A stretch of 64,000 nucleotides of DNA from Candidatus Woesearchaeota archaeon B3_Woes (GCA_005222965.1 NJBG01000001.1:208323-272322); one strand, 5' to 3'. Shown: positions 4,162 through 27,483, counted from the first letter of the stretch. Numbers and translations: made by a program. The notes: generated from the letters alone by a model not told the origin.

Positions 4162-4470
4162 GTGATAAAAAATATTCAATTCATCGGATTGAATAAATTA
4201 GAAGATTTGGAAAAAGACACATTTCAGACACTAACATCTAAATATTACAATAAGATTAAAAGAATACCAAAAGAGATAACTTCTTTAACAATACACATAA
4301 AACAGCACAAAAAAAGCCACCATGTTTCTAGATATTCTTTACATATTAAACTAGTTGTACCTTCAAAGGTTTTTGAAGTCAAAAAAACAGAATGGGGCGT
4401 AACAAAGCTTTTGCATAAATCATTTACAGCATTAGAAAACGAACTTCTAAAATATTATAATATAAAATAG
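4162..4470 (+). CDS. Stand-alone HPF/RaiA-like (ribosome hibernation-type) domain protein
   Basis: beta-alpha-beta-beta-beta-alpha pattern; YSLHIKL...EWGVTKLLHKSFTALENEL resembles archaeal HPF-like domains; GTG start. Confidence 0.5.
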   Translation: MIKNIQFIGLNKLEDLEKDTFQTLTSKYYNKIKRIPKEITSLTIHIKQHKKSHHVSRYSLHIKLVVPSKVFEVKKTEWGVTKLLHKSFTALENELLKYYNIK

Positions 4471-4642
4471 CGGGAGGTGGACTTCCAAAAAAGATATATA
4501 AATATCCTTTTTTTGAACCACCGACCTTTGCCCAAAAAACATAAAATGTTTTTTTCCGGGTGCCTCAGGGAAATCCCTATGAGCCTTCCGCAGTCATGAG
4601 GTCCATGACTTCGACGGGCACTCCTGACTGCCCCATCCCGCT
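4468..4642 (-). tRNA. Initiator tRNA-Met(CAU) with four introns (4586-4611, 4562-4577, 4528-4555, 4482-4511)
   Basis: Removing the four inserts gives the 75-nt AGCGGGATGGGGCAGTCAGGAGTGCCCGTCGGGCTCATAACCCGGAGGTCGGTGGTTCAAATCCACCTCCCGCTA with A1-U72, three G-C anticodon-stem pairs and CAT anticodon; each insert forms a BHB. Confidence 0.92.
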
Positions 4643-4737: not shown

Positions 4738-4897
4738 GCCGCGGTCGCTTAGTCTGGCCATAGCGTCGGATTGCTAGGAACAATATTACCTAGAATCTTA
4801 ATAAAGTTCACAAAAATCCGATGTCCTTCGGGGCACGTGAGTTCAAATTGGTCAAAAGGTTTCAAAGCCTTTTGCTTTGAAAGTCTCACCCGCGGCG
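4738..4897 (+). tRNA. tRNA-Ser(GCU) with two introns (4777-4815 at 37/38; 4848-4883 at 59/60)
   Basis: Acceptor GCCGCGG/CCGCGGC, G73, anticodon stem TCGGA/TCCGA, long variable arm TGTCCTTCGGGGCAC, T stem GTGAG/CTCAC; 85 nt after splicing. Confidence 0.93.
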
Positions 4898-4906
4898 TTT
4901 ATAAAA

Positions 4907-6118
4907 ATGAGAAAAATAAAACTTGAATCGTTTTTTGACGAAAAAACAATGTCAGTTCACCTTAGAGAGGGCTCTTTTCCTTTTGCTAAAAAAGGTTCAC
5001 CTGGAAACTGGGATTTTGTTAAAATAAAGAACAAGGAACTAACTCAGACAGAAATAGAGGAAATAAGCAAGGAAATAATTGAAATAGGAGAAGAAGGTGA
5101 GGAAGGATTTGTAGAAATAAATAGAACAGGTTCTACAATAGCTCAATTAGGGACGTTTAGAATTGTAATAACAAGACCTCCTTTTTCAGACGGATGGGAA
5201 ATTACAGCTGTAAGACCTGTAAAACACCTAAAATTAGAAGAGTATAATCTATCATCAAAACTATTGGAAAGATTAGACAAGCAGGCAGAAGGAATTTTAA
5301 TATCAGGAGCTCCTGGAATGGGAAAATCAACATTTGCTGCTGCTCTAATAGAGCACTATGCAGACAAAGGAAGAATTGTGAAGACAATTGAAGCTCCAAG
5401 GGATTTAGTATTGCCAGAGAGCATAACTCAATACGCCATTTCGCATGGTTCTCCTGAAGAAGTTCATGATATCTTATTATTATCAAGACCAGATTATACA
5501 CTATTTGATGAAATGCGTAATAAAGATGATTTTCATCTATTCTCAGATCTAAGACTATCAGGTATAGGTTTAGCAGGAGTTGTTCATGCAACAAATCCAG
5601 TAGATGCTATACAAAGATTTGTAGGTAAAATAGAGCTAGGAGTAATCCCTCATGTAATAGATACTGTAATTTTCATAAAAGATGGAAAAATAGATAAGGT
5701 TCTGGGCCTACAAATTGAAGTCAAGGTTCCATCAGGAATGACAGAAGCTGATTTAGCAAGACCCATTGTTACTGTAAAAGATTTTGAAACAAACAAGCTT
5801 GAATATGAATTATATTCTTATGGTGAAGAAACTGTTGTAGTGCCTGTTGCAGAACAAACAATAAAAAAAACAGGTGCAAAAAGATTAGCAGCACAAGCAA
5901 TAAAAGATTATTTCTTAAAATACTCAGACATGGTGGAAGTAGATGTTGTTTCTGAAAACAAAGCAGTTGTTAATGTTCCAGAATATGCTATTTCTGGAAT
6001 AATTGGAAAAGCAGGAAAACATATTAATGAGATTGAGAAAAATTTAGGAATTAGCATTGATGTAGGAGAAATACAAGGACATTTTACTAATAAGAATAAA
6101 AAGAAAAAACGAAGATAA
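4907..6118 (+). CDS. PINA-family (PilT/VirB11-like) ATPase with KH domain, lacking the N-terminal PIN domain
   Basis: FFDEKTMSVHLREG, IVITRPPFSDGWEITAVRP, Walker A GAPGMGKST, LLLSRPDYTLFDEMR, KH GxxG IIGKAG; start moved to ATG 4907 because 4877 lies inside the tRNA. Confidence 0.88.
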   Translation: MRKIKLESFFDEKTMSVHLREGSFPFAKKGSPGNWDFVKIKNKELTQTEIEEISKEIIEIGEEGEEGFVEINRTGSTIAQLGTFRIVITRPPFSDGWEITAVRPVKHLKLEEYNLSSKLLERLDKQAEGILISGAPGMGKSTFAAALIEHYADKGRIVKTIEAPRDLVLPESITQYAISHGSPEEVHDILLLSRPDYTLFDEMRNKDDFHLFSDLRLSGIGLAGVVHATNPVDAIQRFVGKIELGVIPHVIDTVIFIKDGKIDKVLGLQIEVKVPSGMTEADLARPIVTVKDFETNKLEYELYSYGEETVVVPVAEQTIKKTGAKRLAAQAIKDYFLKYSDMVEVDVVSENKAVVNVPEYAISGIIGKAGKHINEIEKNLGISIDVGEIQGHFTNKNKKKKRR

Positions 6119-6128
6119 GTGATAATAA

Positions 6129-6968
6129 ATGTTAAAATTGATTATTATAGTGATTATTTTTGCTCTTCTTCAAAAAAAAATAAGATTTTATTTTGTAACA
6201 AAAAAGCACAAAAAAACATATCCTATAATGAAAGGTGCTGAACCCTATTTTATTAAAAAAGGAAAAACAGGTGTTTTGCTTCTGCACGGTTTGACTAGTA
6301 CACCGCAAGAATTAAGATTTCTTGCTAAATATCTTGCTTCAAAAAATTTTTCTGTTTACGCTCCTTTAATAAAAGGACACGGCACTAATGTAATAGACCT
6401 TGCAAGAACAAAAGAAAAAGATTGGGAAAATTCTGCTCTAAAAGGATTTGACAAACTATCTAAATCAACTAATAGAGTTTATGTTATAGGAAGCTCTATG
6501 GGCGGAAATTTATCTTTTAGAATAGCCACTAAAAGAAATGTTGAAGGAATTGTTGTTATGGGTACTGCAATGTTCTTCAAAAGACAACTTTTTAATAAAA
6601 TTCTATTTAAATTTATTAAGTTATTCAAGAATTTTGTAAGAAAGGAGTATCCTGATGAAAAGATAAAAAAGTTGGTAAAGAAGAAAACCCAGTATATGGA
6701 ATTTCCATTAAACTGCATTAGTGATTTAATTAAGCTTATCAGAATATCTGAGAAAGATTTGCCAAAAATAACAGCTCCTTCCTTAATTATGCAGTCTTCA
6801 ACAGATCATATCCTACCAAAAGAAAATGCACAATGGATTTACAAACATATTGGTTCAGTTAAAAAAAGAATTTTTATGGTTCCAAATTCTTATCATGTTT
6901 TCTGTATTGATAAAAACAGAAACATAGCTTTCAAAGAAATATATAGGTTTATTAAAGAAACTAGTTAA
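6129..6968 (+). CDS. Alpha/beta-hydrolase (carboxylesterase/monoacylglycerol lipase-like) with N-terminal membrane anchor
   Basis: LLLHGLTS, GHGT, GSSMGG nucleophile elbow, D and H (SYHV) of the triad. Confidence 0.88.
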   Translation: MLKLIIIVIIFALLQKKIRFYFVTKKHKKTYPIMKGAEPYFIKKGKTGVLLLHGLTSTPQELRFLAKYLASKNFSVYAPLIKGHGTNVIDLARTKEKDWENSALKGFDKLSKSTNRVYVIGSSMGGNLSFRIATKRNVEGIVVMGTAMFFKRQLFNKILFKFIKLFKNFVRKEYPDEKIKKLVKKKTQYMEFPLNCISDLIKLIRISEKDLPKITAPSLIMQSSTDHILPKENAQWIYKHIGSVKKRIFMVPNSYHVFCIDKNRNIAFKEIYRFIKETS

Positions 6969-25468: not shown

Positions 25469-26086
25469 ATGCCTGAAAAGAAACTAAGGATTTTAGCAGC
25501 AGGAGACATTCATGGAGATGTTGACCTAGCTGAAAAACTAGCAAAAAAAGCAAAAAAAGAACATGTTGATTTAGTTGTTTTATGTGGAGATATAACCTAT
25601 GCAGATCAATCAACAGCTAATTTGATTAAACCTTTCAAAAAACTGCATGAAAAAGTTCTACTAATACCAGGAAATCACGAGCCTGTTGCAACAGCAGATT
25701 TCCTAGCTGAATTTTATGAAATAAAAAACATTCATGGCTATTCTGTTAAGTATAAAGACGTAGGAATATTTGGAGCAGGGGGAGCAAACATAGGTTTATT
25801 CCAACTAAAAGAAAAAGAAATTTACGATTTACTAAAAAAAGGATTTGACAAGATAAAATATCTAAAAAAGAATATAATGGTAACTCATGTCCATCCTTCT
25901 GGAACAAAGATGGAAAAATTTACAAAGATATTTCCAGGATCAGAAGGTGTAAAAAGAGCAGTAGAAAAACTAAAACCAGATATATTACTCTGCAGTCATG
26001 TGCATGAAGCAGAAGGCATAGAAGAAAAAATAGGCAAGACAAAAGTTATTAATGTTGGTAGAAGAGGAAAAATAATAGAAATCTAA
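25469..26086 (+). CDS. Calcineurin-like metallophosphoesterase
   Basis: GDIHG, CGD, PGNHE, THVHP, SHVHE. Confidence 0.9.
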   Translation: MPEKKLRILAAGDIHGDVDLAEKLAKKAKKEHVDLVVLCGDITYADQSTANLIKPFKKLHEKVLLIPGNHEPVATADFLAEFYEIKNIHGYSVKYKDVGIFGAGGANIGLFQLKEKEIYDLLKKGFDKIKYLKKNIMVTHVHPSGTKMEKFTKIFPGSEGVKRAVEKLKPDILLCSHVHEAEGIEEKIGKTKVINVGRRGKIIEI

Positions 26087-27483
26087 CCTTTACAAACACC
26101 CATAGGCTCTAATCTAACAACTTTAGGAGAAATTCCAGACTTATCAACACTTTCTATAACATCTGAAACATTTTTATAAGCTTCAGGGGCTTCTTCAGAT
26201 AAAATTTTAGGATGAGTTGATTTTGCAATTATACCACGAGAAGCTAATCCTTTACGAATATCTTCTCCATCAAACTTTCTTATTGCGGCATGCCTTGACA
26301 TAGAACGTCCAGCACCATGACAAGTACTTCCAAATGTCTTTTCCATAGCTTTAGAACTTCCTTTACAAATAAAAGAAGCAGTTCCCATTGAGCCTGCAAC
26401 TAAAACAGGATTTCCAGGAAAAGCTCTTGTAGCGCCTTTTCTATGAACATAAACCTCTTTTTCAACACCATCAACTAAATGCTTCTCTAATTTAACAACA
26501 TTATGACATAATCCATAGATAGTATGCATATCCATCTCCTGCCAAGTTCTACCAAATACCTTTTCAAAAGTTTCCCTTATCCATTGCGTCATAACAAGGC
26601 GATTTGTAAAAGAATAATTAACAGCGCACTTCATTGCTTTAAAATAATCCTGACCTTCTGAAGAATTTACAGGAGCACAAGCCAATTGTCTATCAGCTAA
26701 TTTAATCTTATACTTTTGAACAGCTTTTTCCTGAATTCTCAAATAATCTGTAGCAACCTGGTGACCTAAACCTCTAGAACCGCAATGAAGCATAATAACT
26801 ACTTGATTTTTATCTGTTATTCCTAACTTAGAAGCAAATTCTTTATCATAAATATCACTTACTTTTTGTATTTCCAAGAAATGATTACCAGCACCTAAAG
26901 TCCCAAGCTGTGGTTTTCCTCTTTTTTTTGCTAAATCACTGACTTTAGAAGGATCAGCACCAGACATACATCCATTTTCTTCTAATGATGCTAAATCTTC
27001 TTTAACACCATAACCATTCTCAACAGCCCATTTACATCCTTTAACCAAAACTTCATCTAATTCAGAATCACTAAGCCTAAGCTTTCCTTTAGAACCAACT
27101 CCACAAGGAATAGTTTTGAATAATTCAGTAATAAGTTCTTCCATCTTAGAATTAACTTCATCATAAGTTAAATTCGTACGAATAGAATTTATCCCGCAGT
27201 TAATATCAAAACCACATAAGCCAGCGCTTATAACACCGTCGACAGCATCAAAAGCAGCAACACTTCCCATAGGCAATCCATAACCAAAATGAGCATCAGA
27301 AAGTGCTACAACAGGATCAATCACACCAGGCATCTGAGTTACATTCATAATCTGTCCAACAGTTCCATCTTCTAATTCATCGATTATAGCTTTATTTCCT
27401 ATAACTAGCCCATTTACATTCATAGAGCCTTCTCTAGGTAACTGCCATTCAAATTCATTTAATTTTTTTAATTTTTCTTTCAT
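26083..27483 (-). CDS. rtcB: RtcB RNA-splicing ligase
   Basis: DAHFGYG, GFDINCG, GTLGAGNHFLE, HCGSRGLG, HN, HRKGAT, HGAGR, EEAPEAYK. Confidence 0.97.
   Translation of the reverse strand: MKEKLKKLNEFEWQLPREGSMNVNGLVIGNKAIIDELEDGTVGQIMNVTQMPGVIDPVVALSDAHFGYGLPMGSVAAFDAVDGVISAGLCGFDINCGINSIRTNLTYDEVNSKMEELITELFKTIPCGVGSKGKLRLSDSELDEVLVKGCKWAVENGYGVKEDLASLEENGCMSGADPSKVSDLAKKRGKPQLGTLGAGNHFLEIQKVSDIYDKEFASKLGITDKNQVVIMLHCGSRGLGHQVATDYLRIQEKAVQKYKIKLADRQLACAPVNSSEGQDYFKAMKCAVNYSFTNRLVMTQWIRETFEKVFGRTWQEMDMHTIYGLCHNVVKLEKHLVDGVEKEVYVHRKGATRAFPGNPVLVAGSMGTASFICKGSSKAMEKTFGSTCHGAGRSMSRHAAIRKFDGEDIRKGLASRGIIAKSTHPKILSEEAPEAYKNVSDVIESVDKSGISPKVVRLEPMGVCKG

Follow-up and report, generated by a model that had tools for sequence, protein, structure and literature searches.

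In the Thermoproteales (Pyrobaculum, Thermofilum and Caldivirga; Sugahara et al. 2007, 2008, as summarised in PMC4033280 and PMC8450103), single colinear tRNA genes may be interrupted by several short introns, each bounded by a bulge-helix-bulge (BHB) motif, at canonical as well as non-canonical sites, the latter including 59/60 and the anticodon stem, and the motifs of some of these introns depend on prior removal of an adjacent one. An initiator tRNA-Met (iMet) gene of the same general design lies at 4642-4468, minus strand, in a 64,000-nucleotide (nt) stretch of the genome of Candidatus Woesearchaeota archaeon B3_Woes (GCA_005222965.1 NJBG01000001.1:208323-272322); this whole stretch is called the window below, and coordinates are those of the window unless a contig is given (G000, the source genome; C1 and C3, contigs of it; L numbers, other loci). 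Whereas the accounts of the Thermoproteales in PMC4033280 and PMC8450103 place the maximum at three introns per gene, the iMet gene of G000 has four. In addition, the tRNA splicing endonuclease EndA of the Thermoproteales is an (alpha-beta)2 heterotetramer with a Crenarchaea-specific loop, whereas G000 encodes one alpha-type subunit with no detectable insertion, and their hosts are hyperthermophilic crenarchaea, whereas G000 is a small mesophilic-type genome, with 30% GC, of the DPANN archaea (Diapherotrites, Parvarchaeota, Aenigmarchaeota, Nanoarchaeota, Nanohaloarchaeota).

ARMAN-2 (Micrarchaeota; Fujishima et al. 2011, PMC3239211) resembles the present case in being a DPANN host with T-loop introns, at 53/54 and 59/60, bounded by strict motifs, and in having tRNA genes that standard tools overlooked. 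However, its EndA is an epsilon2 enzyme of three units that has a specificity loop of its own, as opposed to the single alpha-type subunit of G000, and the sections of that paper on tRNA introns give a maximum of three and mention no four-intron or initiator case. The DPANN lineages with an alpha4 EndA share with G000 a single-subunit enzyme together with multiple and non-canonical introns. For these lineages, the relevant parts of Kaneta et al. 2018 (PMC5829648) link the alpha4-type enzyme with raised tRNA disruption and predict undiscovered disrupted tRNA genes in genomes of the Woesearchaeota/Pacearchaeota type, which matches G000; the proposal in a preliminary description of our locus, that tRNAs apparently missing from DPANN genomes may be hidden in this way, is already published. 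The same parts tie the trait to an 'L3' insertion and give no per-gene count of four, and the EndA of G000 lacks the insertion of the Nanoarchaeum equitans alpha subunit, which we presume to be identical with L3. A very high intron load is also described in the main text on Atabeyarchaeia and Freyarchaeia (Asgard archaea; PMC11291895, 2024), where three genomes hold 228 tRNA introns, more than half of the genes have multiple introns, and many introns are non-canonical, some having been found by manual structure drawing alone; these hosts belong to another phylum and have another EndA type than G000. The split and tri-split tRNAs of N. equitans and Caldivirga maquilingensis likewise involve BHB motifs and EndA in their joining, with break points that overlap intron sites, but they come from separate genes joined in trans, whereas the five iMet exons follow one another in order on a single strand, inside 175 nt, so that the gene is neither a split nor a permuted tRNA. 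Three introns is the maximum stated for an archaeal tRNA gene in the passages on intron number of PMC3239211 (2011), PMC4033280 (2014) and PMC8450103 (2021), the figure that the preliminary description had also given, and up to three are also given for tRNA genes of the red alga C. merolae in the corresponding part of PMC3728597. Full-text literature searches returned no main-text report of a four-intron tRNA gene, the per-gene table of PMC11291895 (Supplementary Data 4) lying outside their scope; the preprint text of that work names no maximum.

The iMet gene consists of five exons (31, 8, 6, 16 and 14 nt) and four inserts (26, 16, 28 and 30 nt), 100 of its 175 nt being insert. We reproduced letter for letter the exon and intron boundaries of the preliminary description, and found the insertion sites 29/30, 37/38, 43/44 and 59/60 and the four central helices, including one A-C mismatch, as it had given them. 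In the order of transcription, the parts of the gene are:

4612..4642, minus strand: exon 1, 31 nt, tRNA positions 1-29 (5' strand of the acceptor stem, D-arm, start of the anticodon stem)
4586..4611, minus strand: intron 1, site 29/30, 26 nt (central helix CCGU/GCGG, inner stem 7-8 bp, outer helix 2 bp)
4578..4585, minus strand: exon 2, 8 nt, positions 30-37, containing the anticodon CAU
4562..4577, minus strand: intron 2, canonical site 37/38, 16 nt (central helix CUCA/UGAG, inner stem 2 bp)
4556..4561, minus strand: exon 3, 6 nt, positions 38-43
4528..4555, minus strand: intron 3, site 43/44, 28 nt (central helix ACCC/GGGC with the A-C mismatch, inner stem 9 bp, outer helix 0-1 bp)
4512..4527, minus strand: exon 4, 16 nt, positions 44-59 (variable loop, 5' strand of the T-stem, most of the T-loop)
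4482..4511, minus strand: intron 4, site 59/60, 30 nt (central helix UUCA/UGGA, in-register inner stem 5 bp, the T-stem serving as a 5-bp outer helix)
4468..4481, minus strand: exon 5, 14 nt, positions 60-73 (3' strands of the T-stem and acceptor stem, discriminator A)

CCA is not encoded. The G+C content of the exons is 64% and that of the inserts, in order, 50, 62, 21 and 20%, in a genome of 30%. Joined by script from these coordinates, the exons gave a 75-nt product that ARAGORN identified as tRNA-Met(cat) with a score of 117.9, all stems paired and the anticodon CAU in a 7-nt loop, and its minimum free energy fold was the cloverleaf. Archaeal initiator tRNAs are marked by A1-U72 and by three consecutive G-C pairs (29-41, 30-40 and 31-39) in the anticodon stem. 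The ARAGORN drawing of the spliced product contained A1-U72 and G29-C41/G30-C40/G31-C39, and the earlier designation of the product as a textbook initiator is thereby upheld. The product was identical at 64-70 of its 75 positions to 15 distinct intron-less orthologues from the same order, with the differences mostly at paired stem positions, and three intron-less orthologues scored 59-62 bits against the Rfam family RF00005.

Each junction was scored against the standard BHB geometry, in which 3-nt bulges, each cut after its second base, flank a central helix of 4 bp, with an outer helix and an inner stem beyond them. We found the 3-4-3 geometry in exact register at all four junctions, with values for central pairs, inner stem and outer helix of (4,8,2) at 29/30, (4,2,2) at 37/38, (3,9,1) at 43/44 and (4,5,5) at 59/60; after removal of intron 1, the outer helix of 37/38 increased from 2 to 5 bp. 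The motifs at 29/30, 37/38 and 59/60 are strict (hBHBh', with flanking helices on both sides), and that at 43/44 is of the relaxed kind because of its A-C mismatch and near lack of an outer helix (0-1 bp). When the inserts were shuffled in place, the observed values were matched in 0, 46, 0 and 12 of 20,000 shuffles for 29/30, 37/38, 43/44 and 59/60, respectively, and segments of the same lengths from random places in the genome matched them 5, 620, 5 and 48 times per 200,000; the four BHB junctions are thus beyond chance. Covariation was tested for the 29/30 intron alone, using ten distinct introns of exactly 26 nt in a gapless alignment. On the hBHBh' structure, 89.2% of the cells were paired, compared with 27.7-50% when the partner was slid, kinship inflating the covariation figures and being retained in the slid controls. 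Two-sided changes occurred in six of the seven inner-stem pairs, the central and outer helices were nearly invariant, and the covariation score of 0.368 was matched by none of 500 shuffles. Covariation of the 29/30 intron across the ten relatives is therefore strong.

G000 comprises 1,021,708 bases in 4 contigs, is 96% complete and carries the iMet locus inside a 1.0-Mb contig. ARAGORN called 22 tRNAs in this genome, or 32 with introns allowed, and RF00005 had 29 matches; no Met tRNA was among the ARAGORN calls on G000, and RF00005 had no match at the iMet locus. In a BLAST search of the spliced product against the 1.02-Mb genome, only the iMet gene's own exons and generic T-arm similarity were returned; exon 1 matched at 100%, and nothing else like it was present in G000. 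The uninterrupted iMet gene that the preliminary description had proposed looking for was thus not found in G000 by ARAGORN, RF00005 or BLAST, and the interrupted gene is apparently the sole initiator tRNA gene of this genome. A second CAU tRNA, interrupted by two introns, is encoded at C1:84111-84256 (minus strand); its G1-C72 pair and its anticodon stem, which is mixed, mark it as being of the elongator type. When spliced by the best BHB registers, this tRNA has a G at position 37, which is unusual beside an anticodon reading an A-starting codon; the cause would be an intron boundary misplaced by one nt or else an atypical loop.

The standard tools overlook the gene, as had been predicted. 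In the 64-kb window, ARAGORN found no tRNA gene and Rfam no family at gathering score; with introns allowed (-i), ARAGORN still found no gene at the unspliced iMet locus, and Rfam had no match at this locus or at three other four-intron iMet loci in relatives. Once the other three introns were taken out, ARAGORN -i called the 16-nt intron 2 itself. We therefore used a blind census in which BHB-bounded inserts in GC-rich islands were listed, combinations of them were removed and the products were rescanned by ARAGORN. Early versions of the census missed the iMet gene because A/U-rich inserts yield many BHB-like candidates: there were 235 at this locus, the true 16-nt intron ranking 86, so that automatic tools struggle there. 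The working census, in which more registers were kept and the anticodon-loop intron was left to ARAGORN -i, found the gene again as a tRNA-Met(cat) interrupted by four introns, with three scores unchanged. As a negative control, 862,484 spliced variants from 1,188 other GC-rich windows yielded three known intron-less tRNAs alone, with no spurious multi-intron tRNA at an ARAGORN score of at least 108.

The signals and enzymes that expression and splicing of the gene would need are encoded in the window or elsewhere in G000:

4673-4666, minus strand: TATA-like box ttataaat, at -31 to -24 of the iMet gene
4680-4674, minus strand: purine-rich sequence aaaaagc resembling a B recognition element (BRE), directly before the TATA-like box
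4464..4467, minus strand: T-run TTTT, right after the discriminator base
26086..27354, minus strand: RtcB RNA ligase gene (PF01139, E 1e-159, 472-amino-acid open frame)
G000:C1:502306-502890, outside the window: EndA gene, 194 amino acids (PF02778 and PF01974, the N-terminal and catalytic domains)

The same kind of TTTATAAATA-like box begins between -34 and -30 in front of most of the other tRNA genes in G000, at a distance matching that of the iMet box, and T-rich sequence also follows other tRNA genes there; the TTTT after the iMet gene is likely to act as the transcription stop. EndA shows the Tyr/His/Lys context, and its residues 24-194 align nearly without gaps to the alpha4 EndA of Methanocaldococcus jannaschii (1A79). 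Its best solved relative is the alpha subunit of N. equitans (3IEY_A), from which it differs in lacking a 6-residue insertion before the catalytic His. Neither Pfam nor a phmmer search of 4,636 segments of open reading frames revealed a second subunit or paralogue in G000. We compared ten EndA sequences, from G000, five relatives with three or four iMet introns and four with an intron-free iMet gene (a further sequence, from G308, was excluded from the alignment, with a 38% match and an internal stop). These were 60-66% identical, with no insertion or deletion in the catalytic domain, and as EndA is uniform across the order, iMet intron number tracks no visible change in the enzyme. At its N-terminus the G000 EndA bears a tail of about 22 residues, rich in Lys (L021:1204-1270; G000:C1:502309-502375), that is absent from the M. 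jannaschii EndA, and similar tails occur in several relatives regardless of iMet intron number.

The survey of relatives that the preliminary description had called for revealed iMet genes with zero to four introns in independent assemblies. The first sample comprised 41 genomes including G000, of which 31 had a match; 39 of the 40 relatives belong to other families of the same order, and the remaining one, G001, which belongs to the same family as G000, had no match. Nineteen loci were read from this sample, of which nine were uninterrupted, eight had one intron (seven near 37/38 and one in the T-arm) and two had three introns, all at sites common with G000. An order-wide search covered 401 genomes, 213 of them with a match, seven of the genomes in this tally being unpublished and left unread. 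We also scanned genome and metagenome collections with a 15-base probe covering exon 2 together with the end of intron 1; most of the matches listed were bacterial chance matches, and the named records among them were labelled Woesearchaeota, Nanoarchaeota or 'archaeon'. The identity of L030 with L267 and of L043 with L002, both loci in the order of G000, places the lineage of these named records. With six further loci added, about 60 were read in all, and the intron-bearing genes were parsed with a spliced aligner and by eye. The architecture recurs, at 72-85% identity, in several of the order's families, and complete four-intron iMet genes are present in G000 and at least seven more times in related Woesearchaeota/Nanoarchaeota assemblies, with about ten insertion sites in all:

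G000: four introns, at 29/30, 37/38, 43/44 and 59/60
G080 (L265): four introns, at 29/30, 37/38, 43/44 and 59/60, the sites of G000
L229: four introns, at 29/30, 37/38, 43/44 and 59/60, the sites of G000
L069 (= L199): four inserts, both middle boundaries approximate
G232 (L267 = L030): four introns, at 29/30, 37/38, 46/47 and 59/60
L051: four introns, at 29/30, 37/38, 43/44 and 53/54
G154 (L270): four introns, at 29/30, 37/38, 53/54 and 59/60
G129 (L263): four introns, at 15/16 in the D-loop, 29/30, 37/38 and 43/44

In addition, L072 has four inserts before its contig ends, and hence at least four, and three-intron genes include those of G003, G036, G196, G143, G344 (with a 13/14 intron), L044, L056, L158 and L177; no five-intron gene was present among the loci parsed. 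A script tally of 57 loci gave 15 with no intron, 14 with one, 8 with two, 6 with three, 8 with four and 6 not resolved, counts that contain duplicates and one artefact (L272, with a false third intron) and that are no estimate of prevalence because the loci were picked by similarity to an intron-bearing query. Automatic refinement of boundaries sometimes picked wrong registers, giving non-CAU anticodons; such cases were read by eye, and their sites may be off by one. The four introns had been put forward as a novelty, and they do exceed the maximum given in the passages cited above from PMC3239211, PMC4033280 and PMC8450103, but at least seven related iMet genes equal them.

In L002/L043 and L003, the 37/38 intron terminates on its 3' side in GGCGA(A/C), which makes 2 of 4 pairs with the anticodon-loop strand and could pair instead with the CGUC that ends exon 1. 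This hints that two neighbouring introns may form a combined fold in these genes.

From these data the iMet gene is real and conserved, and to judge from its sequence it is very probably functional. Multiple-intron tRNA genes are an established class in archaea, and this one, with four introns, three of them non-canonical, falls within it; it is notable for the number of its introns, for its status as sole initiator gene and for its host having a plain alpha-type EndA despite one relaxed motif. We regard it as highly probable that the locus is a functional initiator tRNA-Met gene, apparently without a second copy, in a DPANN archaeon of the Woesearchaeota type with a genome of 1.02 Mb, the four introns being cut by EndA and the exons joined by RtcB. 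The path that we infer begins with transcription from the gene's own TATA/BRE promoter, which would produce a precursor of about 175 nt. Pairing between exons and introns would then form BHB motifs (3-nt bulge, 4-bp helix, 3-nt bulge) at 29/30, 37/38, 43/44 and 59/60; EndA, presumably as a homotetramer, would cut in both bulges of each; and RtcB would join the five exons into the 75-nt tRNA, to which CCA would be added later. Removal of the introns is probably stepwise, because simultaneous formation of all the motifs would be costly. The enzyme may capture the motifs one after another, with 37/38 favoured once the 29/30 intron is out.

The predicted fold of the 175-nt precursor is stable (-70.2 kcal/mol, z -5.0, none of 200 shuffles being as good), and in it the hairpins of the four introns are all retained along with the acceptor stem and T-stem. 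Several points nevertheless weigh against this reading. Relative to the optimum, forcing the exact BHB conformers costs 4.7, 3.8, 1.1 and 9.4 kcal/mol singly and 19 kcal/mol jointly, and in the free ensemble the probability of the central helix at 29/30 is near 0; these costs tip the balance neither way. Two of the helices compete with stems of the tRNA, since that at 29/30 uses the 3' strand of the D-stem and that at 43/44 the 3' strand of the anticodon stem. The 43/44 motif, with its mismatch and its outer helix of 0-1 bp, is one that the single EndA, close to the strict M. jannaschii enzyme and without the N. equitans-type insertion, would not be expected to accept, as alpha4-type enzymes do not cut relaxed motifs according to the sections on enzyme specificity in PMC3239211 and PMC5829648. 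Finally, a second iMet gene possibly lies in the part missing from the 96% complete, four-contig assembly.

If the 43/44 insert were left uncut by the alpha-type EndA, only three introns would be spliced, and the insert would either stay as an extra arm of the variable region or be removed by another activity. Such an outcome would suit a motif with 3 of 4 central and 0-1 outer pairs and an enzyme of the alpha4 type, for which the part of PMC3239211 on specificity requires a strict motif, and the insert is located where class II tRNAs have their long arm. However, GGG(U/C) with two unpaired bases after it stands at its 3' end in G000, G003, G080, G129, G143, G196, G344, L044, L051 and L229, exactly the requirement for a central helix with ACCC, and relatives that keep GGGU there have 4 of 4 central pairs. 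The helix uses C39-C41 and is thereby incompatible with the mature anticodon stem, so that it makes sense only as a processing signal. Moreover, the variable loop of the intron-less orthologues is 5 nt long, and the score at 43/44 was reached by none of the 20,000 shuffles. We therefore consider it very unlikely that this insert escapes splicing.

It is highly improbable that the locus is a decaying pseudogene, an old iMet gene filled with junk inserts while a working initiator is encoded elsewhere, either in the unassembled 4% of the genome or in an unrecognised form. The completeness of 96% leaves room for such a gene, as does the census, which misses Pro, Trp, probably Ala and other tRNAs and is to that extent not exhaustive; but the exons are intact, every stem pairs, the promoter box is intact and the 1.02 Mb hold no second initiator-like sequence or iMet-like locus. 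The inserts themselves retain BHB geometry and covariation, and the architecture has been kept in several families of the order. That the locus is chimeric or mis-joined is exceedingly improbable, for although the assembly is of the metagenome type, in 4 contigs, and includes a small contig, C3, with intron-less duplicate tRNAs that may be foreign, the locus lies within a 1.0-Mb contig in an ordinary gene context, homologous intron-bearing genes, some with the identical four sites, occur in many independent assemblies, and interruptions of a like style occur in the adjacent tRNA-Ser gene and in further genes of this contig.

On the preferred reading, of a functional gene with four spliced introns, G000 seems to lack an initiator and several further tRNAs solely because genes that are more than half intron escape ARAGORN and Rfam, and inferences on completeness and codon usage for DPANN genomes carry the same blind spot. 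An intron number above the maximum of three stated in the passages cited from 2011 to 2021 recurs in several families of the order, and the iMet alleles with 0, 1, 2, 3 and 4 introns, at shared and unshared sites, are good material on the origin and loss of archaeal tRNA introns. In addition, the relaxed 43/44 motif and the plain alpha-type EndA form a substrate-enzyme pair that bears on the link between EndA architecture and intron diversity. A wider claim, which we advance only tentatively and regard as doubtful, is that Woesearchaeota-type archaea have the most fragmented colinear tRNA genes documented, with iMet alleles of 0-4 introns at about ten sites and at least eight complete four-intron genes, all processed by one loop-less alpha-type EndA that accepts even the relaxed 43/44 motif. 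If this were so, the rule that alpha4 enzymes cut strict motifs only, and that broad specificity needs a loop or a second subunit, would fail, and the order would be a natural series of tRNA intron gain and loss.

Interrupted genes for other tRNAs were also found in G000. A tRNA-Ser(GCU) gene at 4738-4897 of the window, plus strand, is divergent from the iMet gene and 95 nt apart from it, and has a long variable arm. It contains one insert in the anticodon loop, with approximate boundaries, and one of 36 nt at 59/60 (4848-4883); ARAGORN scores it at 116.5 after the two introns are removed, and both ARAGORN and Rfam miss it unspliced. By the census, tRNA-Ser(UGA) at C1:661901-662076 (minus strand; score 111.0) has three introns, two peeled by BHB and one called in ARAGORN intron mode, and two-intron genes include Asp(GUC) at C1:37859-37980, Arg(UCU) at C1:277816-277947 and Leu(CAA) at C1:563814-563979. 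An Ala(UGC) call at C1:197810-197905 is doubtful. The genes for tRNA-Pro, tRNA-Trp and several other isoacceptors were not found by the census of G000 even with every one of the 1,129 GC islands included in the scan; they may be more heavily disrupted, split or permuted, or may lie in the missing 4%. Those of the larger leftover GC islands that were inspected were not tRNA-like; among GC-rich intergenic sequences, two elements of about 120 nt, at C1:106095-106337 (minus strand) and C1:691017-691262 (plus strand), are apparent copies of each other and are not tRNAs.

Contig C3 (6.3 kb) carries, at 5815-6162, four tandem intron-less tRNA genes, for Lys(CUU), Glu(UUC), Val(CAC) and Thr(CGU), three of which duplicate isoacceptors that have introns on the main contig. 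The G+C content of C3 is 32.7%, compared with 30.2% for the main contig, and C3 may be foreign, of viral or plasmid origin, or mis-binned.

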